A stretch of 29,469 nt of DNA, taken from positions 1-29,469 of the forward strand of contig JAEOTX010000231.1 of NCBI GenBank assembly GCA_016839605.1. The letters are read 5' to 3'. Under the pieces are notes generated by a model. That model worked only from the letters and a program-made list of their open reading frames with translations, did not search any database and was not told the origin of the DNA. The translations under genes and the position numbers were made by a program. Below are positions 9,027 through 29,469 of this stretch, in pieces; within the stretch, counting starts at the first letter, position 1; each line of letters opens with the position of its first letter. The stretch is from Candidatus Thorarchaeota archaeon. GTDB lineage: Archaea; Asgardarchaeota; Thorarchaeia; Thorarchaeales; Thorarchaeaceae.

Positions 9027-9578
9027 TTGTCAAAAAGAACCCCGCGTTATATGTTCAAGATGGTATCTCTGGGCGACGCGGCCACAGGCAAGACTAGCTG
9101 CATCATCAGATACACCGAGAATAGTTTTGGAGAGTCATACCAAGCAACAATGGGAACCAATATCGCTGTCAAGAATCTCCAAGTTGCATTGACTGAAGAA
9201 GAGACCGTGCCAGTACAAATAGTATTATGGGATCTTGGAGGTCAACCTGATTTCAAAGAGCTTAGACTGAGATACATGGCTGGAGCTAGCATTGCGTTCA
9301 TCGTCTATGATGTGACGAATCCGAGGTCTTTCTTGCATGTCTATGATTGGTATTCAAATTTCATATCCGTGAATCCAGATGCCGCAGTATCCCTTGTCGC
9401 GAACAAAATAGATTTGGATGACAGAAAAGTGCCTCCTGAAGCGGGGCAAATGCTTAGTGATTGGCTAGATGTAGCCCACATTGAAACGAGTGCAAAGACT
9501 GGAGAGAACGTAGAAGAACTCTTCACAGATCTCATCTCCCTTGGAGTGCAAAAGCATAGTTCAAGAAGCATTGAATGA
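9027..9578 (+). CDS. Ras-superfamily (Rab-like) small GTPase
   Basis: G1 GDAATGKT, G2 Thr (ATMG), G3 WDLGGQ, G4 NKID and G5 ETSAK. TTG start after GGAG. No C-terminal Cys. Confidence 0.92.
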   Translation: MSKRTPRYMFKMVSLGDAATGKTSCIIRYTENSFGESYQATMGTNIAVKNLQVALTEEETVPVQIVLWDLGGQPDFKELRLRYMAGASIAFIVYDVTNPRSFLHVYDWYSNFISVNPDAAVSLVANKIDLDDRKVPPEAGQMLSDWLDVAHIETSAKTGENVEELFTDLISLGVQKHSSRSIE

Positions 9579-11263: not shown

Positions 11264-12807
11264 TATGGAATCACTCCTAGCATATCGTTGACTATCGGCA
11301 TCACTAGATTCAGCACAAGATCAGGCCAGAGTCCTAAGATGATTACAGGTATCATCATCAGAATTGGTGCAATTAGATCGCTCCAAGGAGCCTCTGTAAC
11401 CTCCTTTTCTGGATCAGGGTCACTGAACACAATCCTGTTCAGTGTCCAGAGTAGATATCCAACCGTGACGAAGATACCGAAAGCAATGAAGCCGGACCAG
11501 ATGTAGATATTGACAGAGCCAAACAGGACAAGCACTTCTGCGATGAATCCGCTCATCCCTGGCAACCCGAAGGCTGCGAAGACTGCAAGGATAAAGACAG
11601 CAGACATCCTCGGGGCCTTCGTCATCAATCCCCTAATGGCGGGAATCTCTCTTGAGCCTGCTGAGTACTTCAGTTGACCTGCAAGAATGAACATGACAGA
11701 TGAGATCATCCCATGGGATACCATCATGAAGACTGCGCCTTGAACTGCAAGGCTAGCTGAGAATAACTGTCCTTCAGTGGCTCCTCCTCCAATGGCAAAT
11801 CCACCGATGGCAACTCCAAGCAGCACCCATGCCATGTGATTGATGGATGTATACGCGACCATTGACTTCACATCTGTCTGACCCATAGCTACAAACGCCG
11901 CATAGATGCACGTGAAGATCGCGAGGATTGCAAATGGGATACTAAGTCGAGCGAAGCCCTGTGGGACCATCCAGAGACCCAGCCTGATGAAGCCATAGCC
12001 GCCCATCTTTAGGAGAATACCAGCGAGTATCACTGAACCCGGAGTGGGTGCCTTCACGTGAGCCCATGGCAGCCAGTTGTGCAATGGGAATACTGGTAGC
12101 TTGACTCCTGCACCTAGGAATACAGCCAGTGCAAAGCCAATCTGAATGTTGATAGCGATTGGTGCAGCCTTGATTGACAGCATATTGAATGTGCCAGGTC
12201 CTAGGAAGAACAACGCCATGAACGAAACCAGCATCACTGCTGAGCCAAGATGTGTGTAGATGAAGAACTTGACAGCCGCATGCTCGCATCCTTCCTCGCC
12301 CCATCTTCCGATGATGAAGAACATCGGGATAAGGACCAGTTCCCAAAAGATGAAGAAGCTGATGAGATCAAGTGACATGAATACTCCAAGTAGTCCTGTC
12401 TGCAGCATCAGGAAGAACATGTAGTACAAGTTCTTTGATTTGTCTATGTGATTCGAGCTAAGAGCCGCGATGAAGACCACGAGGTTTGATAGGAACACCA
12501 TTGCAACGGAAATTCCATCAACTCCAAGGTATATCTGAAGAATTGCACTCCAGCTTCCAAACTGGACAGTACTGAGGGTGAAATACCACTCGTACCACAT
12601 TACACCGGGATTTGGCAGGATAGCGATAATCAGGACTAACGAGAGCAGAAGTTCAACGAAAGTGACTACAAGTGTGAGAGCTCTGGCTCCTCTAGCTCCT
12701 AGGATGTATGCAATAAATGCCGCAACTAATGGTGCGAATAGCATGAGTGGTAGTATGTTTTCCATTGGTAGCAATGCAATGAGGTCTTGGATGATTCCTA
12801 GCTGCAT
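11263..12807 (-). CDS. nuoM: Complex I-like antiporter subunit M (second, canonical copy)
   Basis: GVDGIS, FFIFWELVLIPMFFIIGRWG, KLPVFPLHNWLPWAHVKAPTPGSVILAGILLKMGGYG and GLPGMSGFIAE. Confidence 0.93.
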   Translation of the reverse strand: MQLGIIQDLIALLPMENILPLMLFAPLVAAFIAYILGARGARALTLVVTFVELLLSLVLIIAILPNPGVMWYEWYFTLSTVQFGSWSAILQIYLGVDGISVAMVFLSNLVVFIAALSSNHIDKSKNLYYMFFLMLQTGLLGVFMSLDLISFFIFWELVLIPMFFIIGRWGEEGCEHAAVKFFIYTHLGSAVMLVSFMALFFLGPGTFNMLSIKAAPIAINIQIGFALAVFLGAGVKLPVFPLHNWLPWAHVKAPTPGSVILAGILLKMGGYGFIRLGLWMVPQGFARLSIPFAILAIFTCIYAAFVAMGQTDVKSMVAYTSINHMAWVLLGVAIGGFAIGGGATEGQLFSASLAVQGAVFMMVSHGMISSVMFILAGQLKYSAGSREIPAIRGLMTKAPRMSAVFILAVFAAFGLPGMSGFIAEVLVLFGSVNIYIWSGFIAFGIFVTVGYLLWTLNRIVFSDPDPEKEVTEAPWSDLIAPILMMIPVIILGLWPDLVLNLVMPIVNDMLGVIP

Positions 12808-12808
12808 T

Positions 12809-15070: not shown

Positions 15071-15071
15071 C

Positions 15072-16589
15072 TCATGGAAGTAGGGTAGCTATTCCTTCTA
15101 CACCAGGAACGATGACATCAAGTGCCAGACCTGGGAATATTCCAAACAGCACAATGAGCACGCCAAGGATGATCATTGGGTAAGTCATCCAGTTCGAGCT
15201 CTCTCTCACATCCTCTAGTTCTGTGGGATGAGGCCCAAGGAAGACCTTCCATAGATACCTGAGCATGTATCCTGCGCTTACTATAGAGCTTGAAACTGCC
15301 AATATGGACAGGACAAAGAACTCAGGTCGAGCTAGACCTCCTGATCCCATCAGAACGGCATCAAAGCCGCCAAGGAACATCATCCACTCACTAGCGAATC
15401 CAGAGAGGGGTGGACTTCCTGCAATGCTCAAGGCACCAATGGCTGCAGCGAATGCTGTGATGGGCATCTTATTCGAGAGACCGCCCATCTTGTCAACGTC
15501 TCTCAGATGAGTCTGATGAATCACAGCTCCAGCGGTCATAAACAGGAGACCTTTGCTGAAAGCGTGATTGATGAGATGAAACAGACCACCAGATATGCCC
15601 ATCGTAGTGATCATCCCCAATGCAAAGAGGACATAGCCCATCTGCGAAACTGAAGAGTAAGCCAGCAATCGCTTGATATCCTTCTGGACAAGAGCCATGG
15701 CTCCTCCGTAGAACATCGTCACAACTCCAAGTACTCCCATCCAGAACGACAGTGTCTGGGCCGCAGGGCCAAGCGTGATGATTCCAAATCTCACCAGAGC
15801 ATAGGCACCGGTTTCAATCATAGCTCCTGAGAGCAGAACAGAGATTGGTGTTGGCGCTTCCGCGTGCACAGGGGGCAGCCACCAGTGTATGGGGAACACA
15901 GCCATCTTGACAAGGAAGCCCGCTGCGAGCAAGACAAAGATTAGCTGAAGAAGTTGAAGATCAGACCAGATTGCTGGAGCCATCCGTAGGATGGAATATA
16001 GCTCAAAAGTACCTGTAAAGAAGTACAATAGACCGAAACCAATCAATATACAGACTGCGCCAGCTTGTGTGTAGAGCCAGAACTTGATGGCAGTACGTTT
16101 CCTGGTTTCTGGCAATCCCCAGAACAGAATCAGGAAATAGGCCGGAACCAGCATGAGTTCCCAAAAGATGAAGAATTCGATCAAATTAGTCGCCAAGGTC
16201 ACTCCTTGCATTCCCATCAGGAAGAACAAGGTGTTCGCGAAGAAAGTAGGCTTGTTCTCGCTGTGCTCTGTGTAGCCAACAGCATAGACAACTGAGAGGA
16301 AACCAAGCAAGACTACTGCAAAGGTGATCGGGAAGGCTATCTCATCGAGATAGAGTCCAAACTCACCCAGGACAACTGACCAGGTGACTTTCTCTGCAGC
16401 TCGACCGCCCTCAACTAGGACGCGGTAGAAAGGTGGCACCATGAGGAATGCTGCGAACGCTGAGAATCCAACTGCAATCTTTCCTGAAGTCTTTTCGAGT
16501 CGACCTCTAAGTAGGTAGATCAGAAGACCTCCGATGAAGAGGACTAGCAACGATGTGGTCATGAATGGGAACTCGAACGCGGCCTGCAT
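15072..16589 (-). CDS. nuoM: Additional NuoM-like antiporter subunit (M1)
   Basis: FFIFWELMLVPAYFLILFWG, IKFWLYT, KMAVFPIHWWLP.VHAEAPTP, LLAYSSVSQMGY and SGFASE. Start placed at ATG 16589 (TGATG overlap with the nuoI stop, AGGAGGT RBS) rather than 16613. Confidence 0.85.
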   Translation of the reverse strand: MQAAFEFPFMTTSLLVLFIGGLLIYLLRGRLEKTSGKIAVGFSAFAAFLMVPPFYRVLVEGGRAAEKVTWSVVLGEFGLYLDEIAFPITFAVVLLGFLSVVYAVGYTEHSENKPTFFANTLFFLMGMQGVTLATNLIEFFIFWELMLVPAYFLILFWGLPETRKRTAIKFWLYTQAGAVCILIGFGLLYFFTGTFELYSILRMAPAIWSDLQLLQLIFVLLAAGFLVKMAVFPIHWWLPPVHAEAPTPISVLLSGAMIETGAYALVRFGIITLGPAAQTLSFWMGVLGVVTMFYGGAMALVQKDIKRLLAYSSVSQMGYVLFALGMITTMGISGGLFHLINHAFSKGLLFMTAGAVIHQTHLRDVDKMGGLSNKMPITAFAAAIGALSIAGSPPLSGFASEWMMFLGGFDAVLMGSGGLARPEFFVLSILAVSSSIVSAGYMLRYLWKVFLGPHPTELEDVRESSNWMTYPMIILGVLIVLFGIFPGLALDVIVPGVEGIATLLP

Positions 16590-17020
16590 CAACGGAACCT
16601 CCTTCCGCGCCACTCAAGTGGGTCTCTGTCAAGTGTCTCGATCTTATCAGGACCGTAGAGCAGGTCCTCTCTCTCTCCCTCGCTGATGTCAACGACTTTG
16701 GTGTGAAATAGCGCATCAAACCTGCAGGCCTGAGTACACATGCCGCAAAAGATACAGCGTGTGTAGTCGAAGAAGAGAGCCGCATCCTTCTCGTAATGCT
16801 TGTCACTCTTGTCGATACTGATAGCTACATTTGGACAAGCTCGTACACACTGCATGCATGCTGTGCATTTTTCGCGGACATGTATATGCCTTCCACGAGT
16901 CCTCTCCGGATACTCCCGGTCCTCGAAGGGATAGAAGTACGTAAAGGGTCGGGACATCACTTGACGGAATACGTGTCTCAATATCTGGAATATGTCACCT
17001 AGGTTTCTGAAGAATCCCAT
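16589..17020 (-). CDS. nuoI: Complex I-like subunit I (2x[4Fe-4S])
   Basis: TYFYPFE...PERTRGRH, CTACMQCVRACP and CIFCGMCTQAC. Confidence 0.93.
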   Translation of the reverse strand: MGFFRNLGDIFQILRHVFRQVMSRPFTYFYPFEDREYPERTRGRHIHVREKCTACMQCVRACPNVAISIDKSDKHYEKDAALFFDYTRCIFCGMCTQACRFDALFHTKVVDISEGEREDLLYGPDKIETLDRDPLEWRGRRFR

Positions 17021-17026
17021 CTTGCT

Positions 17027-18175
17027 CTACCCTCCTATTCCTAGAATTGCTTGCAGTGCTGGAATGTTGGCGATTCCCAACATGACTAGCACGACGTTCA
17101 GTATTGACAGTGGAAGTAGATACTTCCAGCAGAAGTACACGATCTGGTCCTGCCTGAGTCGATGGAACGATGAAGTCACCACGACAAAGAAGAAGAACAC
17201 TATCAGGAACTTGATGATGAATATCACACTGCCTGGTAAGAAAGCTGGTCCTTGGAATCCACCAAGGAACAACGCAACAATGAGGGCTGAATAGAGAGCC
17301 TGCTCAGCGAACTCAGCAAAATATGTCAGTGTGAAGTAGATACCGCTGAATTCAGTCCTCCAGCCGAAGATGACCTCAGAGTCAGCAACTGGAGCATCGA
17401 ATGGAAAAGTACCAACAGAAGCAATTGCTGCTACAAGGAAGGTCGCTACGTTGATTGGCAGCAAGAAGATGAACCAGATATTCGATTGTGCCTGAGTGAT
17501 TGCCATTACGCTCAGGGAGCCGGCTAACATAGCTGGTCCAATTGTCGAGATGATGAGTGGAATCTCACTTGCAAACTGATTGTTAGCTGCTCGGAATCCG
17601 CCGATGAGTGTGTACTTTGAGCCGCTTATCCACCCTGATAATAATGCGACCACTGGTACAGCGGTTAGGAAAGCGAAGACCAGCACGAGGCTTACTGAAA
17701 GATCAGCAATGAACCAGATTGGATCCCATGGGATGAATGCAAAGGGAATGAGAACCACAAGCAGAAGCATTGAGGGAAGGAACCTGTACATCCAGCGCCT
17801 TGCTTTATCAGGGATAATGGTCTCTTTTGCTACCAGCTTTATCGCATCAGCGAAGAGCTGGAGACCTCCATACTTCCCTAGGTGGAAAGGCCCTCGTCTG
17901 TCTTGAATCCTGCCCCATAGCTTCCTCGTGAACCAAACCGCGAAGATAATCGTCATGAGTATGAACACAAGACCAGGGAATAGGATAGCTCGAATGAGGA
18001 AGAAGAAGTTTGCTACATCGAAGACTGCAGCCCAAATCCACGTGAAGATGCCCCATATCCAGTAAAAGATTCCACTTACAATGCCAAATATCCACTGAAT
18101 GACTCCATAGAGCCATGAGGGAATTCCTTGGAGCCAAGCAAAGAAGTCTATCTGCAGAACGACACCTCCCATCAT
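17027..18175 (-). CDS. nuoH: Complex I-like membrane subunit H
   Basis: RKLWGRIQDRRGP, GGLQLFADAIKLVAKE, SKYTLIGGFR, PFDAPVADSE, EFSG and RLRQDQ..FCWK. Start is uncertain (ATG 18175 or 18172 overlapping the nuoD stop, or CTG 18157 after GGAGGTG). Confidence 0.93.
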   Translation of the reverse strand: MMGGVVLQIDFFAWLQGIPSWLYGVIQWIFGIVSGIFYWIWGIFTWIWAAVFDVANFFFLIRAILFPGLVFILMTIIFAVWFTRKLWGRIQDRRGPFHLGKYGGLQLFADAIKLVAKETIIPDKARRWMYRFLPSMLLLVVLIPFAFIPWDPIWFIADLSVSLVLVFAFLTAVPVVALLSGWISGSKYTLIGGFRAANNQFASEIPLIISTIGPAMLAGSLSVMAITQAQSNIWFIFLLPINVATFLVAAIASVGTFPFDAPVADSEVIFGWRTEFSGIYFTLTYFAEFAEQALYSALIVALFLGGFQGPAFLPGSVIFIIKFLIVFFFFVVVTSSFHRLRQDQIVYFCWKYLLPLSILNVVLVMLGIANIPALQAILGIGG

Positions 18176-19308
18176 CGATCCCACCACCCTGGATACGGGT
18201 CAAGGCTTCCAAATACTACAATGAAGTCCGCGAACTTCGCACCGGGAACTAAATGCTTGAGTGAATAGTAAGAGTTGAAACATGGACCTCGTATCTTGGC
18301 TCTGTACGGCGTCTGCGCTTTCTCCGTGGTCTTGAGCCAAAGTGTTGAGATCCCTCTAGTTCCTTCAACGCGACCATAGGCCTCACCTTCTGGGAGCCTA
18401 TTGGATTTACCACGGGCCTTGGGATCAACAATTGGGCCTTCAGGAACTAAAGGCAACAACTTTCTGATTATCTCTACTGAGGTCTCCATCTCCCTGAATC
18501 TCTGGACCATTCTGTCGTAAGCATCACTCTCTCCAGGATGCTCCTCGCTCTCAGTCACTGGAACCTCCCAATCAATCATGTCGTAGGCGAGATTCGGGTC
18601 AGGAGCATCTTTACGCAAATCCATTGGCAGACCACATGCTTTGATTGGCGGTCCGCTGAGTCCGAACTTCAGACCCTGTTTCAGAGTGTATTGCCCAATG
18701 CCTTCAGTTCGTGCTCGGAAGGTGGGACTCCCCATGAGCATGTCACGCATTACGGGCATTCTATCCTCGAAGCGCGCTATGGCGATATCCAGCTTCTCGA
18801 GCACTTTGTCGTTGAAGTCGTACTTTACACCACCCGGAGTGCTGTAAGACACTGCATGGCGTGAGCCAGAGAGTTCCTCGAAGGCATCTAGGAAGAACTC
18901 ACGATCAACCCATGGCCATAACAACATAGCAAACAGTCCAAGCTCTGCAGAGAACTGGCCCCACCAGAACTGCAGCGAATGAATCCTGCTTGCCTCCATC
19001 ATGATAGTTCGCATGACCTTGGCTCGTTCTGGTACTTCGAGTCCGGCAATCTTCTCAACTGCTTGGACGTAAGGATACTCAGCAAGGAACGCCTCAAGCA
19101 TGCAAAGTCTTTCCATTATGAGAGCGCCTTGTCTGAAGTTCCTGAACTCCAGACACTTCTCAGCAGAACGATGGAAGTATCCAGCATTAGGATCGCATTC
19201 GACTACAAAGTCTCCAACCAGAGTGAGTTTAGCGGCCCATCCATGTGCAGATACGTGCTGAGGCCCAAACCAGATCTCAGTGGTCTCATCAAGAATATCG
19301 GGGCTCAT
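18172..19308 (-). CDS. nuoD: Complex I-like subunit D (not a NiFe hydrogenase)
   Basis: GPQHVSAHG, GYFHRSAEK, LSGP, VEGTRG, PYRAKIRGP and C-terminal SLDPYPGWWDR. Only one of the four Ni-ligand Cys positions is retained. Confidence 0.92.
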   Translation of the reverse strand: MSPDILDETTEIWFGPQHVSAHGWAAKLTLVGDFVVECDPNAGYFHRSAEKCLEFRNFRQGALIMERLCMLEAFLAEYPYVQAVEKIAGLEVPERAKVMRTIMMEASRIHSLQFWWGQFSAELGLFAMLLWPWVDREFFLDAFEELSGSRHAVSYSTPGGVKYDFNDKVLEKLDIAIARFEDRMPVMRDMLMGSPTFRARTEGIGQYTLKQGLKFGLSGPPIKACGLPMDLRKDAPDPNLAYDMIDWEVPVTESEEHPGESDAYDRMVQRFREMETSVEIIRKLLPLVPEGPIVDPKARGKSNRLPEGEAYGRVEGTRGISTLWLKTTEKAQTPYRAKIRGPCFNSYYSLKHLVPGAKFADFIVVFGSLDPYPGWWDR

Positions 19309-19832
19309 TCAGACGCACCTCCCTCTGTTGGTTTAGGCTTTGGCGGCGTTCTGTCAGCCTCTTTGAGACGAGATCGATCTGTCACGAAGCTTTTCCTCAA
19401 GGGATACTTCCCTTCGAGCTCTTCTGGGAGCAACAGAAGTCTCAGGTCGGGATGGTCCTTGAAGTTTATGCCAAACATCTCCCAGGTCTCTCTCTCGTGC
19501 CACTCCATACCTGGAAATATGTCACTAATTGTATCCACTTCTGGATTCGAGCCCTCTAGAGATACGCGTAAGTGATACTGAGTCCTGTTGGTTCGAGACC
19601 AAAAGATGTAGATGACTTCGAACTTGTCTTCTTGGAGGTCAACTCCAAAGACACTCTCTGGAAATGCGTCAGCTATTTCTTCATCAATCATTCCCACAAC
19701 ATCTCGAATCTTGTCGGCCGGGACTATGCACTCAAGGATGCCATCTTCCTTCGGAGTACATTCAACATCAGGGAACTTGTTGACTATCTGTCTACCAAAT
19801 GTGGCGCCAGATATAGGAGTGTCTTCAGACAT
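19305..19832 (-). CDS. nuoC: Complex I-like subunit C
   Basis: WHERETWEMFGINFKDHPDLRLLLLP....YPLRK signature. Start placed at MSEDT (19832) after AGGAGGAG, overlapping the end of nuoK. Confidence 0.92.
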   Translation of the reverse strand: MSEDTPISGATFGRQIVNKFPDVECTPKEDGILECIVPADKIRDVVGMIDEEIADAFPESVFGVDLQEDKFEVIYIFWSRTNRTQYHLRVSLEGSNPEVDTISDIFPGMEWHERETWEMFGINFKDHPDLRLLLLPEELEGKYPLRKSFVTDRSRLKEADRTPPKPKPTEGGASE

Positions 19833-20145
19833 CGAGCTTCTCCTCCTGTGAGATTGGCTTTCCAAGGTCCACTGAACCATACCGTCTGTTGTATGCAAGC
19901 ATCAATACCAAAGCTAGAGCAGTATGTGCAGCAGCTACTGATATCATGAGAATGATGAGGGCTTGTCCTGTGAGTGTAAAGGTGGGACTATAGACAGCGA
20001 AAGCAGCCAGAGCGATACTGACTCCATTCCCCATAATCTCAGCCCCAATTAGAATTCTGATGAGGTTCCGCTTTACCATCATCCCATATGCGCCTAGGCC
20101 TATCAGGATGAATGCGACAGCTAGGTACCAAGAAAGTGGGACCAT
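19825..20145 (-). CDS. nuoK: Complex I-like subunit K
   Basis: 3 TM, with GAYGMMVKRNLIRILIGAEIMGNG and GQAL....ISVAAAH.ALAL. Confidence 0.92.
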   Translation of the reverse strand: MVPLSWYLAVAFILIGLGAYGMMVKRNLIRILIGAEIMGNGVSIALAAFAVYSPTFTLTGQALIILMISVAAAHTALALVLMLAYNRRYGSVDLGKPISQEEKLDV

Positions 20146-20828
20146 CAGTCAGCCACCTCCTCACTGGCTTCTGGTTCAGAGGTCTTCTCGGATTCAGGAG
20201 CTTCCTCGGGTTCAGGAGATTCCTCAGGCTCTGGCTCAATCTCTTCTGGGACTGGCCTTGCTTCGATGCCAAATTCTCCAGTTATATCTTTCATGAGCTC
20301 AGCCTTGTCCATCTTCATAAGTGCGATAACACCAACGAGCGCTGTCACCATAATGAGCGCAACAATCTGTACGTATACTCCGTGGTCACCCCAGAGCCAC
20401 TCGGCCAGAAGAGCTACATCAAGAGAAGCGTCGATCGTTCCTTCGGGAATGGTCTCACTCCAAGGGAATCTGAGAGCCAGAATAGCAGAGATGAACATGA
20501 TAGATCCGGACACCAGTATGCCGATCTTCTTAGCACGCGGAGACTCGATTGCCTCAAGCGTGGAGTCCTGTGCTCGCGGGAGCAAAAGAACGCCGAATAT
20601 GATTAGCGCACTAATACCACCAGTATACACCGCAATCTGCATACCGGCAACGAAAGGTGCTTCCAACAGCAGGAAGAAGCCTGCAACGAAAGAAGCCATG
20701 ATGCCAAAAAAGAATGCAGCATAGACAATCTCTTTGTGCTCCAGAGCGAGATAAGCCAGCACAATCACAATGCCTGCGATTAGCAGAAACTCAACTGACT
20801 CAAATGCAGACTCGAACCCTTGCATCAA
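20145..20828 (-). CDS. nuoJ: Complex I-like subunit J with acidic C-terminal tail
   Basis: LLEAPFVAGMQIAVYTGGISALIIFGVLL signature, 5 TM and a Glu/Pro-rich tail. Confidence 0.92.
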   Translation of the reverse strand: MMQGFESAFESVEFLLIAGIVIVLAYLALEHKEIVYAAFFFGIMASFVAGFFLLLEAPFVAGMQIAVYTGGISALIIFGVLLLPRAQDSTLEAIESPRAKKIGILVSGSIMFISAILALRFPWSETIPEGTIDASLDVALLAEWLWGDHGVYVQIVALIMVTALVGVIALMKMDKAELMKDITGEFGIEARPVPEEIEPEPEESPEPEEAPESEKTSEPEASEEVAD

Positions 20829-21280
20829 TGCTCCCTCCCTGGCGCATGTGGCTTTTCAAGATGTCGAGCCTTCGCCGCGCGATATGCCTCAAGAGTCTCT
20901 TGTCCATCAAGAGAAGTCTGAGGCAAGTACTTCATGGCGTATCCAATGCCACCCATGATGATTATTACGAAGATGAAGGTCTGCCAGGCGATAATTGGAT
21001 TCAGCCTGATTGGTGAAACAGATAGCAGCCAGAGAAATGCTCCCATTACGTCTATGATTACGAAGAGAATAGTGTAGATGATATAGCTATATGGAAAAGA
21101 CATCCTGGCTGGGCCTATAGGCTCTTCACCACATTCATACGTAGATGTCTTCTCCGAGTTCTGCAGTATATGGGGTCGCAGAACCCAAGATGCCAACAGC
21201 ATGATCACAATGAGTACAATTACTAGAATTGCCCATACTAAGACTGGGATGAATTGGAGAAACAGCCTATCTGTCTGCAA
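20825..21280 (-). CDS. nuoA: Complex I-like subunit A
   Basis: EKTSTYECGEEPIG and YTILFVIIDV, 3 TM. TTG start after GGAGG. Confidence 0.92.
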   Translation of the reverse strand: MQTDRLFLQFIPVLVWAILVIVLIVIMLLASWVLRPHILQNSEKTSTYECGEEPIGPARMSFPYSYIIYTILFVIIDVMGAFLWLLSVSPIRLNPIIAWQTFIFVIIIMGGIGYAMKYLPQTSLDGQETLEAYRAAKARHLEKPHAPGREH

Positions 21281-21615: not shown

Positions 21616-21975
21616 GTGATACAATTGTCTTACAAAGAAGAGGGTACATTCTTCTATTACCTCGCGCTTCTAATCGGAATGGGATTCATTGGAGCTTACT
21701 TCTGGATCATCTTGACTGTAGCACCGATAGATCTCAACTTTCAATACTTTATCTTCTTGAGTGGGCTGTTCTTTGTAGTAGCGACTCTTGGTATTGCATT
21801 CGCAACTAGCCGCAATGGGCGAATAGGAGCCACTATGCTTTCTGGTATCTTCGGTGGCATTCATGCCTACCTGACCATTACTCAATACACAGATCTAGCA
21901 GGCATTCTGCTCTTCGCCTGGGTTGCCTTCGGTCTGCTTCTTGCGTTTGCTGCGTTTGCTTGGCTGCGTGAGTGA
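21616..21975 (+). CDS. Hypothetical small 4-TM membrane protein
   Basis: Four hydrophobic segments. The likely true start is TTG 21625, with AGGTGA acting as RBS. Confidence 0.7.
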   Translation: MIQLSYKEEGTFFYYLALLIGMGFIGAYFWIILTVAPIDLNFQYFIFLSGLFFVVATLGIAFATSRNGRIGATMLSGIFGGIHAYLTITQYTDLAGILLFAWVAFGLLLAFAAFAWLRE

Positions 21976-22080: not shown

Positions 22081-22605
22081 CTATTCTGTGGATGCGTCTT
22101 CTGAAACTTCAGCTGAATCCTCTGAGACCGCGGGCTCAGCCTCAGTTTCTGTAGCTGGTTCAGCCTCAACAGCTTCTTCTGGTTCTGGCTCTGGTTCAGG
22201 TTCGGGTTTGTAGTCCAAGTCACTGACTTGCAGGATCCCAGGAGACACGCTTACATCCATGGGGTCCAACATTGAAAAGCCCCCAGATAACAGGATTGCA
22301 CCGCCCATGCCCCATGTCGCGTAAATGAGGTCACTTCCAAATGGAACTAAGACATAGATCGTGTAGAGAACGCCAACTACGATTGCAATTGAGAGCATAT
22401 TGACCTTGATCCGGCCACGCTTCGGTTTGAGATAACCAACCAGAAAGAACACCATAACCAATGGTCCACCAGCCAGGAATGGAAAGTGAAGCGCCATTGC
22501 TGTGTCAGCAAGAACTGCTAGTAATAGGTCGAAGACATAGGCACTCAGAATAATTGTGCCTATCAGCAGCATGCAATATTGATCGCTGTCTTCTCGAAGG
22601 CTCAC
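22081..22605 (-). CDS. Hypothetical 4-TM membrane protein with acidic Glu-Pro tail
   Basis: Four hydrophobic segments, then PEPEPEPEPEE. GTGA overlap with the stop of the FAD-NuoB fusion. Confidence 0.7.
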   Translation of the reverse strand: MSLREDSDQYCMLLIGTIILSAYVFDLLLAVLADTAMALHFPFLAGGPLVMVFFLVGYLKPKRGRIKVNMLSIAIVVGVLYTIYVLVPFGSDLIYATWGMGGAILLSGGFSMLDPMDVSVSPGILQVSDLDYKPEPEPEPEPEEAVEAEPATETEAEPAVSEDSAEVSEDASTE

Positions 22606-24542
22606 TGAATCATCCCCATTGCATCTTGATTCTCGTACTTCAATTGCCAGTGGGTTGTGCCCGCTCGAATCTTATTCTGGAGTATCAGATGAGCCCTAAC
22701 AAAGTCAGAAGGCTTCGGAGGGCATCCCGGAAGATACACGTCGACAGGAACAACAGACTCAGGTGGCACTTGTAGTGAATAACCGTCCCAGAACAATCCT
22801 CCACTCGCAGCGCACTGTCCAAATGCGATGACGAACTTAGGGTCCGGCATCATCTCGTAGACCCTGCGGAGTCTTGGGGCCATCTTCTTTGTGAGAGACC
22901 CAGATATCCACAGGACATCACACTGACGTGGACCAAAGAGTGGAAGCATGCCAAATCGTTCAAAGTCCCAACGTGATGCGATTCCAGCAGCCCCGTCAAC
23001 CATGCAACATCCTAATCCGTATTGGACAGGCCATGGACTATGCGCTCTGCCCCAACGGAGCACCCACTTGAGTGGTGGAAGGTTCTGTAGCCACTTCAGT
23101 AGGATTGGAGCAATTCTACCCCATCCGTTCCTGAAGAGGTCGTAGAAAATCCATAGGAAGTATTTCCCGAACTTCAGGATCAAGGGCAGCCAAAAGGCAA
23201 ACACCTTCCCTGGGTTTGATATCTCCTTCTTATCATATTTTAGCTTTGCAGAACGAATCTTTGCTAGTCGCTGTTTTCCAAAGTACGTAGAAGCTTCATT
23301 TGCGAACCAAATTCCTGTGGAGTGCGCATGGCCGCCATGTCGTTGAGCAATCTTGAACACTACAAAGCTCTGTGACCATGAGAGCATGAAGAACCTGCGA
23401 CGCTCATCTTCGAGGAAATAGCCCATCATAGTCACGGCGTTCATTGAGTTGACGTAGCCATCAATGCCTGCCTGAGCGGATCCCTGTTCGAACTGCCAGT
23501 CGTCTAGAATTGCAGTGAGGTTCTCCAAAGGCGCAAATGCCTGACCAACAACAAGTGTGGGGCCAGCCTTCTTCACCCTCATAGGGTAGAAGCGATCGTG
23601 CCACTCGTGGGCAGCCACATGCTCATCATAAACAGTTCCCTTGTACATTTCTGTGACTTCTTCAACAACTCTGAAGCCTTCAGCAATCTCCTCCTCATCG
23701 CCGTCATAAGCAACCATGATTGTGCCATGATGAACTGGGAATGGGAACTTCTCTTCACTATCCCATATCTTCTTCTTCAAGTCGGTGTATTTCGCCTCTT
23801 CAAACTTGATGGTGAAGGGCAAAGGACCATCCTCAAGGATCTTCTCAATGGCATGGACCATCAAGTAGTTCTCCTCGAAGCTTGACACGATGACCTTGAC
23901 TGGTGTGAGAGGCTTGATCTTCACTGTGACCTTTGTGATTATGCCAAGAATACCTTCGGTGTCACAGAACAAGTCAGTGTCCTTACTCTTGACTATCTTT
24001 CCAGTGGGCAGGACAACCTCCACCTCTACAACATTCTCGTTGATGTTGCCATACTTGAGAGAGCCTATTCCGTCGCCTCCCTGAGCGACCCATCCACCGA
24101 TTGTCGCCGAGAGTCCAGATGAGGGGTAGCAACGTAGGTCGAGGTTCTTGCGGTTTAGCTCGAACTGAAGGTTTGCCCAGGAGAGTCCTGGTTCCACAAT
24201 GACTGTCATGTTCTCCTCGTCAATACTCAAGATATTGTCCATCAAACGCATGTCAACGATGATACCGCCTTTTCGAGGGATGGCTCCCCCATAGCCCGAA
24301 GTGCCTGCTCCTCTTGGCACGAGAGGAACCTTGTACTTGTTCGCAAACTCATACAGGAACTTGATCTCTTCAGGGGTTTGAGGTTGCACAATCGCATCAG
24401 GCTTGACGTTCATCAACCAGCCCACTTGTTTGGGCAAAGAACCAACATCCATGCCATGAATGACAAGCTCATGCTTCTCGGTTATCACACGGTCTTCATA
24501 GACCTCAGCGAGTTCTGTCACCAGCTTTGGCTTCAGTGTCAT
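22602..24542 (-). CDS. nuoB: Fusion of a GlcD/GlcE-like FAD-linked oxidoreductase (N-terminal) and complex I subunit B (C-terminal)
   Basis: N-terminal part: PDAIVQP, VPRGAGTS..GG, VEPG, ATIGGWVA, KYG, TEGILGIITK, NPGK. C-terminal part: WGRAHSPWP..YGLGCC, DFERFG, PRQCDVL, PKFVIAFGQCAASGG, PVDVYLPGCPP. One continuous frame. Start placed at ATG 24542 after GGAGAG (the track gives TTG 24557). Confidence 0.92.
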   Translation of the reverse strand: MTLKPKLVTELAEVYEDRVITEKHELVIHGMDVGSLPKQVGWLMNVKPDAIVQPQTPEEIKFLYEFANKYKVPLVPRGAGTSGYGGAIPRKGGIIVDMRLMDNILSIDEENMTVIVEPGLSWANLQFELNRKNLDLRCYPSSGLSATIGGWVAQGGDGIGSLKYGNINENVVEVEVVLPTGKIVKSKDTDLFCDTEGILGIITKVTVKIKPLTPVKVIVSSFEENYLMVHAIEKILEDGPLPFTIKFEEAKYTDLKKKIWDSEEKFPFPVHHGTIMVAYDGDEEEIAEGFRVVEEVTEMYKGTVYDEHVAAHEWHDRFYPMRVKKAGPTLVVGQAFAPLENLTAILDDWQFEQGSAQAGIDGYVNSMNAVTMMGYFLEDERRRFFMLSWSQSFVVFKIAQRHGGHAHSTGIWFANEASTYFGKQRLAKIRSAKLKYDKKEISNPGKVFAFWLPLILKFGKYFLWIFYDLFRNGWGRIAPILLKWLQNLPPLKWVLRWGRAHSPWPVQYGLGCCMVDGAAGIASRWDFERFGMLPLFGPRQCDVLWISGSLTKKMAPRLRRVYEMMPDPKFVIAFGQCAASGGLFWDGYSLQVPPESVVPVDVYLPGCPPKPSDFVRAHLILQNKIRAGTTHWQLKYENQDAMGMIQ

Positions 24543-24766
24543 GTGGACTCTCTCCAAGAGACGAAGCTGCTCTCAGGTCAGGGTCGAGGAAGTATGCTCC
24601 ATAAAAACCTAGCGAGTCAGGGATGGATTGGCATATGACACAACCTACTTGACGTGATTTGAGTTGTGACGAAAACGTGCGCATGTGTAACGAGCACAGA
24701 TATTAAGGGCTGTTGCACGGCATAACTCGTTCAGCCAAATAAGCTGAGCCACCTGCCCCGAAGGTT

Positions 24767-26002
24767 GTGAATGACATCATGGAATTCCCTTCACTCAAAA
24801 AGTATAACCTTCAAGACATGCCATACATGTGTGCCCAATGCAGCTTTTGTCAGGTAGGAAATGGTGCATGTCCAACTTACAAAGTGAAGCGCCGAGATAG
24901 CTTCTCTGGAAAGGGCAAAATGATCATTGCTCGATCATTGGCTCAAGGAAGCCTGAAAGCTTCTGATGGTCTCGAGGGCCTTCGAGACGCAATCTTCGGA
25001 TGCACACTTTGCGGTGGGTGCGAGGAGATATGCCAAGTTGACATCCCATTCGTGCAGGTCTATCAATTGATGAGATCAGACTTCCTGAAGATGGGACTTT
25101 GGCCCGAGCAGTTAGAAATGACCAAGAAGACTTTGCTAGACAGCCAAAATATACAGGGACAGTCACAGATGGATAGAGTAGAGGGCTGGTCGTATTGGCA
25201 TCCCGATGAGGACACTCTTCTTGATACAATGGGACAAGAGGCAAAGACTGCGTTCTTCTTTGGATGCGCCTCATCATTCAGAGGGGTCTCAATCCAAGCT
25301 ACAATAGCTACCACACTTATCATGGACAAGGCTAGTGAATCATACACCTTCCTCGGTGAGGATGAGGTATGTTGCGGAGCCCCTATGATCATGACCGGGG
25401 ACTTTGAAACCGCTCGTCAGTTCGCGGAACACAATATCGAGAAGTACAAGGAGCTTGGTGTCGAACGCGTTATCACGAATTGTCCGGGCTGCTATAAGAT
25501 GTGGGCTCATGAGTACCATACGTTTCTAGATATCGACCCACCGTTCGAGATCCTCTATGGACCCGAATACTTTGAGGAACTCATTGACAATAATAGACTG
25601 GAGTTCAATAATCCCTTGGACATCACGGTAACATTTCATGATGGGTGTGATGCAGGAAGGAATGCAGGGTTCTATGAGCAACCACGGAAGGTCCTCGAGC
25701 ATTTACCAGGAGTCACCTTTGAGGAGCTACCACACAACAAGAGCAATTGCTTCTGCTGCGGCTCAGGTGGTGTGCTCAGAGCAATTGACGCAGATTTTGC
25801 CAATCAGATAAGCAAGCTGAAGGTTGAGGACATCGAACAGACAAGTGCATCAGTAGTTGCAGCATCATGCCCCTCGTGCGTAGACTTCATGCAAGACCAG
25901 TTGCCTCAAGCAGGTTCAAGCAAGACTGTCAAAGACCTAGCAGTCCTTGTGGCGCAAGCTCTAGGCTTGGAATGGGACGGTCTTGATGAGATCTATGAAT
26001 AG
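24767..26002 (+). CDS. HdrD/GlcF-like Fe-S oxidoreductase (two ferredoxin motifs, two CCG domains)
   Basis: CAQCSFC....ACP and CTLCGGCEEIC. First CCG domain FFFGC / EVCCG / NCPGC; second FHDGC / CFCCGSGG / SCPSC. Confidence 0.9.
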   Translation: MNDIMEFPSLKKYNLQDMPYMCAQCSFCQVGNGACPTYKVKRRDSFSGKGKMIIARSLAQGSLKASDGLEGLRDAIFGCTLCGGCEEICQVDIPFVQVYQLMRSDFLKMGLWPEQLEMTKKTLLDSQNIQGQSQMDRVEGWSYWHPDEDTLLDTMGQEAKTAFFFGCASSFRGVSIQATIATTLIMDKASESYTFLGEDEVCCGAPMIMTGDFETARQFAEHNIEKYKELGVERVITNCPGCYKMWAHEYHTFLDIDPPFEILYGPEYFEELIDNNRLEFNNPLDITVTFHDGCDAGRNAGFYEQPRKVLEHLPGVTFEELPHNKSNCFCCGSGGVLRAIDADFANQISKLKVEDIEQTSASVVAASCPSCVDFMQDQLPQAGSSKTVKDLAVLVAQALGLEWDGLDEIYE

Positions 26003-26072
26003 GCTGCAGTTTCAAAGAACGATTTACAGTGGTTTCGATACCCAAATAAGACATAGTTATGCATGTCAATGA

Positions 26073-27335
26073 ATGCAAGGGACGGCTGACACAAGCCTAT
26101 ATAGTGGGAGGAAATGGATTTACGAAGAGATAGTGGACAAGGTTCCACCATTCAGATGGCTCCCTCCTGTATTTGATGTCCTAGCCCAGTTGCTACTTGT
26201 TGAAGCTGTCGGCATTGCTGGCTTCTTGTACTTTGAGATGCCATTGACATCAGTAATCTATGGCACATTGGCGATACTCTACACTGTTGTCTGGTCAGCG
26301 GGGTGTCTCTATGTCATTCCATGGCTAAGACGCTTGAGAGACCCTACAAACATCGAGGAGAAGAAGGTCCTCAAGTCTTACAAGAATCATCTTCTGCTAG
26401 ATCGGAAATATGAGCTAGCCGCAGGGGTCCTATTGTTCGTTGGAGTCTGGGTGTTCATCCTTATTGACCCCACGTTTCTTGAGGTGCATCTTGGTACGGG
26501 ATATGGAAACCTGTTCTTAATGGCACTTCTTGCGGTCTTAGTCTGGGATGTTACATATAGGATTGGACTCTCAATAGTCACCACACTTTTTGCCGCAATG
26601 CGATCTATCTCCTTGAGTCGTGCAGCAAGACGTAGGAGAGGGCTCGAATACACAGCATACTCAGAGGTGAGAACCCTGAAGTACTTGGACTCTGTTAATC
26701 TCTATTGGGCTGCTTCCGCAGTGCTTCTACTGCCTTTGGCAAGCATCACTCCATTGCTGCTTTATGGACTAGGCGCGTTCTTTACTGCAGTATTATTTCT
26801 TTCAGGAGTCAGTCTGCTTGCAATGGAACGAGTCCCTTGGTTCCCCCCGGATGTTGAGAGCATTCTCTATAAAGAGAGATTTGCATATGTAGCACTTTGC
26901 GAAAATGACCAGCCACATGTAACTCCAGTCATTTTTGTCTACGACGGAAAATACCTATACTTCGTTGTTTCACTTGACTCAGCTAAGTATAGGAAGATAA
27001 AGAAGAATTCCAACATCGCGGTTTTAGTTGACATGAGAGATAGCGAGCATGTAATGAACAATCGTGCGGTAATGCTTCGCGGGAAATCTATGATTCTGGG
27101 TGAAATAACCCTATTCGGACTCCTCAGACTATACCTGTATGGACTATGGATGCTTAGAGTCCGATCCCTCTTTGGCCGGAAGTATCCACGATATATGAAG
27201 TATTACGACACTCACCTGAGTGATCTGCCCCTCGCTTGGCAAAACAAACCATTCATCTCAAGAGTGATGGTTAGGGTGGAGCCTGAGAAAATCACCTACT
27301 GGAGAGAGGCAAAACCACAAATCCTGAGGGTATAG
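26073..27335 (+). CDS. Membrane protein (about 6 TM) fused to a C-terminal PNPOx-like split-barrel domain
   Basis: Hydrophobic N-terminal 250 aa, then RFAYVAL..DQPHVTPVIFVYDG.YLYF....SAKYRKIKKNSNIAVLVD...VMVRVEPEKITYW. Confidence 0.8.
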   Translation: MQGTADTSLYSGRKWIYEEIVDKVPPFRWLPPVFDVLAQLLLVEAVGIAGFLYFEMPLTSVIYGTLAILYTVVWSAGCLYVIPWLRRLRDPTNIEEKKVLKSYKNHLLLDRKYELAAGVLLFVGVWVFILIDPTFLEVHLGTGYGNLFLMALLAVLVWDVTYRIGLSIVTTLFAAMRSISLSRAARRRRGLEYTAYSEVRTLKYLDSVNLYWAASAVLLLPLASITPLLLYGLGAFFTAVLFLSGVSLLAMERVPWFPPDVESILYKERFAYVALCENDQPHVTPVIFVYDGKYLYFVVSLDSAKYRKIKKNSNIAVLVDMRDSEHVMNNRAVMLRGKSMILGEITLFGLLRLYLYGLWMLRVRSLFGRKYPRYMKYYDTHLSDLPLAWQNKPFISRVMVRVEPEKITYWREAKPQILRV

Positions 27336-27338
27336 AAG

Positions 27339-27824
27339 ATGTTTCTTGGCAAAATCCACAAAGCTCCCATCAGAGTCATAGCTGAGATTCCAGATGGAGC
27401 TTTAGATATTCTCAGGTCAGGATTTTTCTCATATCTTGGTACATCCGAAGCAGATTGCATGCCACATTTGACTGCTATGTTCTATGTATGGCAAGAGCAG
27501 TCAAAGCAGATATTCATGGTCACAACAAAAGGAAGTCATAAGATATCAAACATCAGAAAGAACACAAAGGTGTGTGTGACCGTAGATGAACGAGATGCAG
27601 TCTTACCTGCGGCTAACAGTGGCGTCATGATAAGAGGTCGTGCAATGATGGTGGAGATGGAACTTCTCGATGAGGCTATCACACTTGACTTTCTTGGTAA
27701 ATACATGAGCTTTTTGGGAGCAGGGTATCCTTTGGGGAATCGAATCGCAATTAAAGTCACTCCAAAAATCTTGTCCTATTGGAGAGGTATGGATTTCTAT
27801 CGATGGAGGAATCCAGACTATTAG
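27339..27824 (+). CDS. PNPOx-like (FMN/F420-binding split-barrel) protein
   Basis: YLGTS....PHLTAMFYVW, SHKISNIRKNTKVCVTVD, GVMIRGRA and IKVTPKILSYW. Confidence 0.85.
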   Translation: MFLGKIHKAPIRVIAEIPDGALDILRSGFFSYLGTSEADCMPHLTAMFYVWQEQSKQIFMVTTKGSHKISNIRKNTKVCVTVDERDAVLPAANSGVMIRGRAMMVEMELLDEAITLDFLGKYMSFLGAGYPLGNRIAIKVTPKILSYWRGMDFYRWRNPDY

Positions 27825-27861
27825 GAAACGTGTTGGTTTCGAAAAGAAACTATCAATGGCG

Positions 27862-27934
27862 GATAATTTAATTATCGAAATTAATAGCCAAGTGCGTTCC
27901 TTGTAATACATTACATTTGGTAAGGTTTTTAATT
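27862..27934 (+). promoter_or_regulatory. Promoter region with two palindromes and a TATA-like box
   Basis: GATAATT-T-AATTATC (27862-27876), TGTAAT-AC-ATTACA (27902-27915) and TTTTTAA (27926-27932), about 40 nt upstream of the GTG at 27973. Confidence 0.5.
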
Positions 27935-27972
27935 GGGTAACATGCCGCTGTGCATCTACTGCACAACCTCTG

Positions 27973-29166
27973 GTGACGGCTGTGAATCGGAAATCAAGAA
28001 GTGCCATAATTGCTGTGTTAGCTATTGCTTTTGTCATTGTGATCGCGTCTCAAGCTTCTGTTGCCTTTACAAGTGAACAAGGGGCTTGTGACACATCACT
28101 GTGCCATACAACTGCAACTGCAATAACAATAGACACCGATGCATCGATTGAGGTAATGGAAGGAACGGAATTTTCGTTTGTTGTTACTGCTTCAGCAACA
28201 GCAGGACCGACAACATTGGTCATTAAATTTCCACGGAGCTTGGAGAGTAATGCCCTCTTCAACATCCCAAGCGATGGTCTAGTCCGTGATGGCCAAGCTC
28301 CAGACCTTGATCCAGATAGCTTGGAAATGGAAGTCAACTACACTATGACTGCACCAGCTATTGCAGGAGTGTATGTCCTTGAGATTTGGGCTGCTGGTGA
28401 TAGCGGGCATGCCGCAGCAACAACTCTTACTGTCAATGTGATTCATATTGGAGAAGGCCCTTCAATAGCAGACATCACAGTAGAGCCTACATCGCCTTTC
28501 CAGAACGAGAGCGTATTTGTATCTGCGAATGTGAGCTCTGAGGCGGGCATAGTCGCAGCAGTTCTACAACACAGGGCAAACACAACTTCTGATTGGACCA
28601 ATATTACTATGACCCAAGTTGGAGGATATTATCAGGCAACCATTCCAATATATCCAGCCGGCACCACAGTAGAGTTTCGAATAGTAGCAAGGGATGGAGA
28701 TGGAATAGAGATTCTTACTGACCCGCCTCTGCAATATGTTGTGCAGGCTATACCAGCACCCCAGATGCACTATGGGTATTACTTAGGTGCTCCTGCAATA
28801 ATCCTAGCTTATCTTGGGATAGCACTAGAATACTACGACGAAGAGAGATTCACAAGGATTCATGGGTATATGCTGACTATAGCCTATTTCTTGACACTAA
28901 TCAATGTGCTTTGGCTATTTCTAGAGGACCCAGGAGTATGGACAGCATTGAACCCAGCCTATCTTATCAACCCAGGTGAGCTGATACTCTTCATTCACTC
29001 TTGGCATATATGGCTTGGAATACTAAGCATGATTTTTGGATCACTAGCACTCATCACCCATCTCGCGGGATGGAAGACATGTAATCTCGGCCTACCTGCG
29101 GTGTTGCTATGGACAATACTTGGGCTGACAGGATATTACCTCAATGCAGTTGGATTCTTGATGTGA
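27973..29166 (+). CDS. Hypothetical membrane protein: signal peptide, CX4CH motif, Ig-like domains and a His-bearing 4-TM C-terminus
   Basis: Signal peptide ending SVA|F, GACDTSLCH, a beta-rich region (YYQATIP.YPAGTTVEFRIVARD), and TM segments with RIHGY, IHSWHIWLG and ITHLAG. Confidence 0.7.
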   Translation: MTAVNRKSRSAIIAVLAIAFVIVIASQASVAFTSEQGACDTSLCHTTATAITIDTDASIEVMEGTEFSFVVTASATAGPTTLVIKFPRSLESNALFNIPSDGLVRDGQAPDLDPDSLEMEVNYTMTAPAIAGVYVLEIWAAGDSGHAAATTLTVNVIHIGEGPSIADITVEPTSPFQNESVFVSANVSSEAGIVAAVLQHRANTTSDWTNITMTQVGGYYQATIPIYPAGTTVEFRIVARDGDGIEILTDPPLQYVVQAIPAPQMHYGYYLGAPAIILAYLGIALEYYDEERFTRIHGYMLTIAYFLTLINVLWLFLEDPGVWTALNPAYLINPGELILFIHSWHIWLGILSMIFGSLALITHLAGWKTCNLGLPAVLLWTILGLTGYYLNAVGFLM

Positions 29167-29469
29167 TGACTATGACGGAAGAGAAAGTAGAAACTGAAAC
29201 GCTGGTATATGAAGACCAAGTCATGCAAGACCTAACAGCCGCTGTGAGTCCGGATCGAGTTTCAGACATGTTATTGGAGCGCATAGTCTACAGTGGAGAC
29301 CCAGCAGCTCTCCCACAATTCCACTACCGTTGGAAAAGCAAGTACCTTGCTGACTACGTAGTGAGAGTCGAGAATGTTGATGAGGTCAAGGAAGTTCTCA
29401 CAACAGCAGCCTCACATAATCTCCCAGTAATTCCAAGAGGTGGCGCATCCAGCTGTCTGGGCTCATCCA
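29166..29469 (+). CDS. GlcD/Dld-like FAD-binding oxidoreductase, 3'-partial (absent from the ORF track)
   Basis: TGATG overlap with the upstream stop, open to the window end: MTMTEEK...VSPDRVSDMLLERIVYSGD...ADYVVRVENVDEVKEVL..A..HNLPVIPRGGASSCLG, the FAD_binding_4 N-terminal motif. Confidence 0.85.
   Translation, partial: MTMTEEKVETETLVYEDQVMQDLTAAVSPDRVSDMLLERIVYSGDPAALPQFHYRWKSKYLADYVVRVENVDEVKEVLTTAASHNLPVIPRGGASSCLGSS

Follow-up and report, generated by a model that had tools for sequence, protein, structure and literature searches.

A NuoB subunit fused to a flavoprotein, and a linked HdrD-like protein, as a candidate redox module of the complex-I-like pump of Thorarchaeia

The NuoB subunit of a complex-I-like pump of Thorarchaeia is encoded as the C-terminal domain of a flavoprotein. 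The fusion gene, designated FAD::NuoB after the flavin adenine dinucleotide (FAD) domain that it carries, lies beside the gene for an HdrD-like iron-sulfur protein with two CCG motifs (the CCG protein), and both were analyzed in contig JAEOTX010000231.1 of a Candidatus Thorarchaeota archaeon. The window, i.e., the whole stretch of DNA analyzed, is this entire contig (C184; 29,469 nt) of an 80%-complete Thorarchaeia genome (G000), and the accompanying survey of the class covered 87 species-level genomes from 17 genera. The fusion recurs across the class, its gene stays with that of the CCG protein, and its FAD domain belongs to a flavoprotein subfamily with signatures of its own. The two proteins are predicted to bind each other, and the reading slightly favored here is that the module they form acts via a membrane prenylquinone-like carrier shared with the pump, which lacks NuoEFG. 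The features that carry the argument are as follows.

22602..24542, minus strand: FAD::NuoB fusion gene, 646 aa from the ATG at 24542, within an open frame that extends to a TTG at 24557 (Pfam)
23193..24542, minus strand: FAD domain, residues 6-455 in the numbering of the 651-aa open reading frame (ORF) (AlphaFold2 [AF2] model, Foldseek, motif alignments)
23040..23192, minus strand: linker of three amphipathic helices, residues 456-506 (AF2 model, hydrophobic moments)
22605..23039, minus strand: NuoB domain, residues 507-651 (NCBIfam, four N2 cysteines)
22081..22605, minus strand: 174-aa membrane protein with an acidic tail (hydrophobic segments; no family match)
24543..24778, no strand: divergent intergenic gap of ~236 bp between the fusion gene and the CCG gene
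24779..26002, plus strand: HdrD-like Fe-S (CCG) protein, 407 aa from the ATG at 24779 (Pfam CCG twice, Fer4_8)
9788..21280, minus strand: nuoA-J-K-C-D-H-I and four antiporter-like genes (M-like, L, M, and N) (Pfam)

The fusion is read from one open frame (22602-24557, minus strand) that matched FAD_binding_4 (135 bits), FAD-oxidase_C, and Oxidored_q6/NuoB (83 bits) in Pfam. Its FAD part covers positions 1-137 of the 139 positions of PF01565 and carries the PF02913 cap, which places it in the VAO/PCMH family, and its PRGxGTS motif does not vary across the family alignment of the domain. The NuoB part scored above the NCBIfam cut-offs of NF005012 (168 versus 116) and TIGR01957 (160.4 versus 142.7; residues 498-635). 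The four cysteines expected for cluster N2 are kept in the segments GCCMVDG, GQCAASGG, and LPGCPP and align with those of stand-alone NuoB. Orthologues of the fusion formed 46 clusters of 646 aa, all of them from Thorarchaeota. An assembly artefact or a frameshift as the origin of the fusion was excluded, since the frame runs without interruption in over 50 of the species-level genomes surveyed. In one genome (G024:C5:93238-95186), the gene was found in two overlapping frames that split inside the linker, which is probably either a frameshift or sequencing error or a natural secondary split.

The flavoprotein is necessarily part of the pump, because the nuo operon of this genome has no NuoB other than that of the fusion. 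The operon itself contains the seven nuo genes and four antiporter-like genes listed above, and no nuoB, nuoE, nuoF, or nuoG was detected in it by Pfam. The remaining Oxidored_q6 genes of the genome are frames of 267 and 317 aa on other contigs, away from the nuo operon, and the closest stand-alone NuoB (P0122) sits on a contig of only 2.6 kb. Four Proton_antipo_M genes at 9788-16613 place the pump among the "2M" NuoEFG-less relatives of complex I. A NuoEFG encoded elsewhere as the real head of the pump was considered and rejected: the single NuoF homologue of the genome belongs to a separate E/F/G-like operon of its own on contig C61, and NuoF homologues show no codistribution with the pump. 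They occur sporadically, in 28 of the 87 genomes, are present in genera without a pump as well, and are missing from several pump-carrying genomes of 97 to 99% completeness. The coevolution of nuoEFG genes with the operon, which an earlier reading of this DNA made from its sequence only (the sequence-only reading) had named as evidence against its own proposal, was therefore not seen. Two FrhB-family genes are also present in the genome, on contigs C54 and C96.

The association of the fusion with the pump and with the CCG protein holds across the class. First, the fusion, the NuoD orthologue, and the 174-aa membrane protein are found in the same 12 of the 17 genera, and NuoD orthologues are confined to genera having the fusion. 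Second, CCG orthologues, which share 65 to 100% identity in the class search compared to at most 38% for paralogues, occur in the same 12 genera and in one more, g14; orthologues with at least 61% identity come from Thorarchaeota only. Third, the fusion and the CCG gene lay within 10 kb of each other in all 54 cases in which both were on one contig, and in 40 of these they were directly adjacent. The layout was back to back in 38 of the 40 adjacent pairs, as the sequence-only reading had described for the window, where the gap is ~236 bp, and codirectional in the two g14 genomes. In genome G007, ~22 kb separates the fusion from the remaining nuo genes, and the CCG gene is still beside the fusion. 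Judged by this synteny, the conserved unit appears to be FAD::NuoB plus the CCG protein, a two-protein redox module of which the FAD oxidase gene starting at position 29166 is not part. A full-text literature search returned no description of the fusion, and the two-protein module is apparently undescribed in the literature. The 174-aa protein, whose start overlaps the stop of the fusion by 4 nt, had no match in Pfam and NCBIfam searches. Nearly always, its gene comes immediately downstream of that of the fusion; it is missing from g14, and by this distribution it appears to be an extra subunit that travels with the pump.

The partner protein (open frame from 24767, start ATG 24779, end 26002, plus strand) contains two ferredoxin-type CxxCxxCxnC motifs (Cys 22, 25, 28, and 35 and Cys 79, 82, 85, and 89) followed by two complete CCG motifs (CXnCCXnCXXC; Cys 167, 202, 203, 239, and 242 and Cys 294, 330, 331, 368, and 371). 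With this order of motifs, whose cysteines show little or no variation in the family alignment, it fits the HdrD-like architecture class. Its best match among solved structures was PDB 9ojn, an "iron-sulfur-binding reductase" (E value of 2.6e-30). Selenocysteine, for which an in-frame TGA in five orthologues was considered, was rejected; the TGA is codon 2 of the open frame, upstream of the real start.

A complex of the FAD domain (residues 1-470), the CCG protein, and the FAD ligand was predicted in three runs with three controls. The ipSAE score between the two proteins was 0.91 in the three runs, compared to 0.00 for the best of the three controls; contacts agreed between runs to at least 94%, and the pLDDT (predicted local distance difference test) of the partner was at least 90. 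Of 80 solved complexes, 58 attained this mark, as did 2 of 110 mismatched pairs, a calibration that holds only roughly here, as the prediction used its own alignments and a ligand. The solved-structure matches contained no FAD_binding_4/CCG complex whose memorization by the predictor might account for the score. On the CCG side, the predicted interface consists of residues 17-32 (with Cys 22, 25, and 28) and 88-92 (with Cys 89), and on the FAD side it consists of the subfamily signatures FYPMRxKxxGPxL and DER together with the flavin-binding loops 84-86 and 147-151, so that the first 4Fe-4S motif is placed against these loops. Use at such an interface would explain the conservation of both signatures. 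The prediction supports binding between the FAD domain and the CCG protein, and relatives in which FAD, Fe-S, and CCG parts form a single chain provide gene-fusion evidence for the same pairing. The sequence-only reading had proposed a three-way prediction; the present one covers the fusion/CCG pair.

The third protein of that reading was the FAD oxidase starting at 29166. It had been taken as a catalytic GlcD, the fused FAD domain as a GlcE-like subunit, and the CCG protein as GlcF(HdrD), the three forming a glycolate oxidase-like head in place of NuoEFG. All three gene types do lie in one neighborhood, and FAD/CCG paralogue arrays are found within ~15 to 30 kb of the fusion in several genera. 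The motif observation behind the proposal was also borne out by alignment to mouse LDHD: the fused domain lacks HxxDGNxH and GEHG, carries GIDGYVNSMNAVTMM and GGHAHSTGIW at the sites of the His/His/Glu metal-binding motifs, and has Tyr/Val/Ala at the three aligned positions. However, the gene at 29166, which indeed begins with an ATG at that position and is cut by the contig end, encodes 486 aa when joined to the next contig; it has SLGGGPYSIGLQ and likewise lacks GEHG and HxxDGNxH. Both motifs were also missing from the array paralogues and from ~85 of the best subfamily representatives in a library of 1.8 billion proteins. The subfamily has its own signatures instead (GGxPYSxGxW, LxDER, and FYPMRxKxxGPxL). 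The nearest relatives of the FAD domain outside Thorarchaeota (34 to 38% identity) are single-chain FAD + Fer4 + 2xCCG proteins of 871 to 1,030 aa, and many members are single chains with just one FAD domain that lack the metal motifs as well. Loss of the motifs is therefore not a GlcE-like mark, because the whole subfamily, including the enzymes with a single FAD domain, is without them. By these signatures, the FAD domain represents a distinct, uncharacterized flavoprotein subfamily and not a decayed GlcE-like subunit.

Membership in GlcD, GlcE, or GlcF was ruled out, as all three window proteins fall short of the curated cut-offs by wide margins. The fusion scored 134 versus 568 (TIGR00387) and 99 versus 897 (NF008408) for GlcD and 32 versus 284 (NF008439) for GlcE; the CCG protein scored 57 versus 333 (NF008434) for GlcF, and its best named match, TfrB, was also below the cut-off (165 versus 385). 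In addition, the second FAD oxidase gene is immediately followed by a CCG gene of its own and is paired with a separate membrane protein gene, and it is not beside the FAD/CCG pair at loci L010 and L011 or in g14. A three-protein GlcDEF-like head is therefore very improbable. What stands of the earlier proposal is the CCG protein as the partner of the FAD domain, with an HdrD-like architecture, and the linkage of its gene to the fusion; the names GlcD, GlcE, and GlcF and the place of the 29166 gene in the conserved synteny do not.

How the two-protein module is connected to the pump was weighed mainly on the linker, on the neighbors of the CCG gene, and on genus g14. In the AF2 model of the fusion, pLDDT exceeds 90 over the FAD domain, which has a D-lactate dehydrogenase fold and whose best Foldseek match is mouse LDHD (template modeling score of 0.84 to 0.86). 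The linker forms helices at 456-477, 479-491, and 496-506 with hydrophobic moments of 0.54 to 0.65, and hydrophobicity analysis found no hydrophobic transmembrane segment in it; on this model, the linker is a probable membrane-surface anchor. In at least 35 genomes, a MenA-like gene is found no more than ~3 kb from the CCG gene, of which it is the most constant neighbor after the fusion; a polyprenyl synthase gene and a GGR-like gene often accompany this locus, and the genome also contains UbiD and two full-length UbiE-type genes. In g14, no pump was found, and the best NuoD-like match is just 32% identical. Yet this genus keeps the pair: at one locus (G076 contig C3, L025:7445-13941), the GGR-like and polyprenyl synthase genes stand together with an operon of the MenA-like gene, the CCG gene, and the gene for an unfused FAD protein of 499 aa, which retains the amphipathic tail. 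The Succ_CoA_lig gene that flanks this operon matches the one beyond nuoN in the window, and the nuo block is therefore the exact difference between the two layouts, as in a clean insertion or deletion. The last residues of the g14 FAD protein, ...PPLKWL, align with the beginning of the NuoB part, and this weakly suggests that g14 lost the pump secondarily.

These observations bear on an alternative in which no carrier is involved and the FAD/CCG module packs directly on NuoB/NuoD, passing electrons straight to or from N2. Such a wire could be an input in place of NuoEFG or an output, as proposed for HdrD and the headless Fpo-like complex in Methanomassiliicoccales. Through its covalent link to NuoB, the module is brought close to the Q-module, the four cluster-binding motifs of the CCG protein could make the wire, the operon contains no NuoEFG or FpoF gene, and NuoF is not codistributed with the pump. 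The missing quinone-binding Tyr of NuoD (18172-19308) points the same way; the canonical residue is replaced by Met (ERLCMLE). NuoD otherwise keeps GPQH..HG, lacks the NiFe cysteine motifs, and ends in DPYPGWWDR, and its sequence suggests that the acceptor site of the pump has been remodeled. Against this, g14 retains the unfused pair without a pump, so that N2 is no obligatory partner; the ~50-residue amphipathic linker resembles a membrane anchor more than a rigid docking element; and the linkage between the MenA-like and CCG genes is tight. Direct wiring is a serious rival but is considered rather unlikely. The carrier was favored over direct replacement of NuoEFG because of the persistence of the g14 pair and the MenA-like linkage. 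Thus, of the head proposed in the sequence-only reading, the attachment of a flavin/Fe-S module to a NuoEFG-less pump stands, and the replacement of NuoEFG by it is weakened.

A second alternative is that the fused flavoprotein has no role in electron transport and is an assembly or maintenance factor, or an enzyme of carrier biosynthesis, tethered to the pump. There is a precedent in plants, where the VAO-family flavoenzyme GLDH is bound to complex I assembly intermediates and has a role in assembly, and the GLDH chain of PDB 7a24, presumably such a plant assembly intermediate, was among the sequence matches of the FAD domain. The neighborhoods also fit a biosynthetic role: relatives of the FAD protein adjoin UbiD, 4HBT thioesterase, and UbiE-type genes (the closest unfused relative outside Thorarchaeota adjoins UbiD and a 4HBT thioesterase), and the MenA-like gene is linked. 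However, the fusion partner NuoB is an essential, stoichiometric subunit and no transient factor, the four cluster motifs of its dedicated partner imply that electrons flow steadily, and the subfamily forms many self-contained FAD-FeS-CCG enzymes and arrays. GLDH is like the present protein in being a VAO-family flavoprotein physically associated with complex I; unlike it, GLDH is bound noncovalently, at the distal membrane arm, and has no Fe-S partner. A role confined to assembly or biosynthesis is accordingly improbable.

In the carrier reading, which is held to be a little more probable than its negation, the amphipathic helices of the flavoprotein that has NuoB as its C-terminal domain would lie on the membrane surface, and the CCG protein would dock its ferredoxin-like domain on the FAD domain. 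Electrons would pass between the flavin, the 4Fe-4S clusters, and the CCG clusters, and the module would exchange them between a soluble substrate and the membrane prenylquinone-like carrier. This carrier would also serve the pump, whose other partner would be ferredoxin at NuoI, and the fusion would thereby keep together the two halves of a short chain of ferredoxin, pump, carrier, CCG/FAD module, and substrate, which could run in either direction. Several observations weigh against this reading. The Met at the quinone-binding position of NuoD leaves the pump's own acceptor uncertain. No gene of the MqnA/MqnD family was found in the 80%-complete genome. The MenA-like gene scores below the NCBIfam cut-offs, and its homologues (~45% identity) are also present in two genera without the module. 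The NuoB part and the domain arrangement in the AF2 model are of low confidence, and the alignments used for the complex prediction took in halves of natural single-chain fusions, which may raise the ipSAE score by likeness. As for the substrate, no ComA family gene was found in the 80%-complete genome, which makes CoM-S-S-CoB weakly doubtful in this role.

Several known systems share parts of this arrangement. In Methanosarcina, Fpo and HdrDE combine a NuoEFG-less pump and an HdrD-type protein with two CCG motifs, with a lipophilic carrier between them, and in Methanomassiliicoccales a pairing of a headless Fpo-like complex with HdrD has been proposed. As in both, a NuoEFG-less complex-I-type pump is found here alongside a two-CCG HdrD-type protein, and in its proposed working the Thorarchaeota layout is closest to these two systems. 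Unlike Fpo plus HdrDE, the FAD domain is covalently attached to NuoB and is predicted to recruit the CCG protein, and neither an HdrE cytochrome b nor FpoF is encoded at the Thorarchaeota locus. Escherichia coli GlcDEF and the Dld-II-type FAD/CCG D-lactate dehydrogenases, which are membrane associated and quinone linked, likewise pair a VAO/PCMH flavoprotein with a Fer4/2xCCG protein. In contrast to GlcDEF, the module has two components rather than three, lacks the His/His/Glu metal site, and has its flavoprotein attached to NuoB; despite the likeness of its parts to GlcDEF and Dld-II, it belongs to neither family. The mycobacterial Rv0338c-type CCG oxidoreductase (PDB 9ojn), which we take to be EtfD, is another CCG protein working at the membrane; its membrane domain is, however, integral, with no amphipathic tail on a partner and no FAD_binding_4 partner. 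Sifarchaeia and Jordarchaeia have been reported to contain many Dld-like genes next to HdrD-like ones, to have a complex I without NuoEFG, and to be predicted to make menaquinone (Sun et al. 2021, PMC9723677). The Dld-HdrD pairs were treated there as soluble lactate:heterodisulfide enzymes, and a NuoB fusion was not mentioned (PMC9723677). The preprint of Appler et al. discusses Asgard complex I and does not mention the NuoB fusion either. Finally, Desulfurobacterium WP_076712547.1 (1,030 aa) has the same FAD signatures (GGxPYSxGxW, LxDER, and YPMRxK) and the same FAD, Fer4, and 2xCCG parts, but it is a single-chain, uncharacterized protein without NuoB.

The same FAD subfamily was also found fused to NrfD, a membrane subunit that interacts with quinones, in a protein of 867 aa from another archaeon (GCA_046760505.1, contig JBHIEG010000010.1, L030:4758-12780). 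The operon encodes two multihaem cytochromes c and a Fer4_11 protein, and a CCG gene and a UbiE-type methyltransferase gene adjoin it. By its domain content, FAD-NrfD appears to be a second case, of independent origin, in which the module has been fused to an energy converter of the membrane. Both this protein and the unfused relative beside UbiD and a 4HBT thioesterase favor the carrier reading.

Complex-I-type pumps work with exchangeable modules, namely, NuoEFG, FpoF, ferredoxin docking, and hydrogenase or formate modules. If the proposal is true, the fusion of a flavoenzyme to NuoB, together with an HdrD-like partner, would add another type of electron module to this set, and its hosts are Asgard archaea, whose energy metabolism bears on models of the origin of eukaryotes. 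Thorarchaeia are usually described as fermenters or acetogens; the proposal makes the testable claim that most of them have a membrane electron transport chain with a lipophilic carrier. A broader version, put forward tentatively, is that Thorarchaeia run a compact anaerobic respiratory chain in which a ferredoxin-linked pump with four antiporter-like subunits is gene-fused to a quinone-linked oxidoreductase within the island of redox genes described below, and that the module is possibly a general plug-in. If true, FAD/CCG would be a general, unrecognized means of coupling soluble substrates to membrane energy converters. The finding also corrects database labels, in which the fusion is simply "NuoB" and its partner an "(Fe-S)-binding protein" or "HdrD."

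The other features of the window near the module are as follows.

26073..27335, plus strand: DUF7530 membrane domain fused to a PNPOx-like domain (Pfam)
27339..27824, plus strand: small PNPOx-like flavoprotein (Pfam, NCBIfam)
27973..29166, plus strand: 397-aa membrane protein (no family match; its stop overlaps the start of the next gene)
29166..29469, plus strand: 5′ end of the second FAD oxidase, which is 486 aa in full, runs on into contig C209, and is of the same subfamily as the fused FAD domain
21616..21975, plus strand: 119-aa hydrophobic ORF between the fusion unit and nuoA, on the opposite strand (hydrophobic segments)

By synteny, the two PNPOx genes are present at L009 and missing at L010 and in g14, and they appear to be lineage-specific inserts outside the conserved core. 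On the same grounds, neither they nor the 397-aa protein nor the second FAD oxidase appear to be subunits of the FAD::NuoB/CCG module. The 397-aa protein heads a separate FAD/CCG cassette, whose order (402 aa, FAD of 487 aa, CCG of 373 aa) is repeated at L009. It has a signal or transmembrane start, a large and probably external domain, and a C-terminal transmembrane bundle bearing His residues, and it may be the membrane anchor of the cassette of the second FAD oxidase, since its stop overlaps the start of that gene. The 119-aa hydrophobic ORF is called as a gene of 116 to 119 aa at the same place at L009, L010, and L011.

At its end, the window shares an overlap of exactly 127 nt with contig C209 read as its reverse complement, and C209 is joined to C191 likewise. 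The three contigs (the window, C209 = L012, and C191 = L034) form one "redox island" with three further FAD/CCG cassettes. Past the second oxidase, it encodes a CCG protein (374 aa; L012:8358-9482), a CrtI/HpnE-like flavoprotein, a CCG protein (400 aa), an FAD protein (568 aa, with a hydrophobic tail), two small genes, a CCG protein (394 aa), and an FAD protein (578 aa), followed by the MenA-like UbiA prenyltransferase. Beyond the MenA-like gene are a polyprenyl synthase, a GGR-like reductase, ccmA, ccmB, ccmC, ccmE, ccmF, and an FMN reductase. From the second FAD oxidase onward, the genes look like a lineage-specific array of paralogous, self-contained FAD + CCG cassettes. The CrtI/HpnE-like protein, a member of the phytoene-desaturase family encoded between two CCG genes (L012:7019-8350 on C209), gives a hint that part of the array may act on isoprenoids or lipids. 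The cytochrome c maturation (ccm) genes are unexpected for a lineage described as fermentative. At the other side of the locus, directly beyond nuoN, the window contains a Ras-family small GTPase gene (9027-9578; Pfam Ras, 133 bits), which is typical of Asgard archaea and is missing at the corresponding place in g14.

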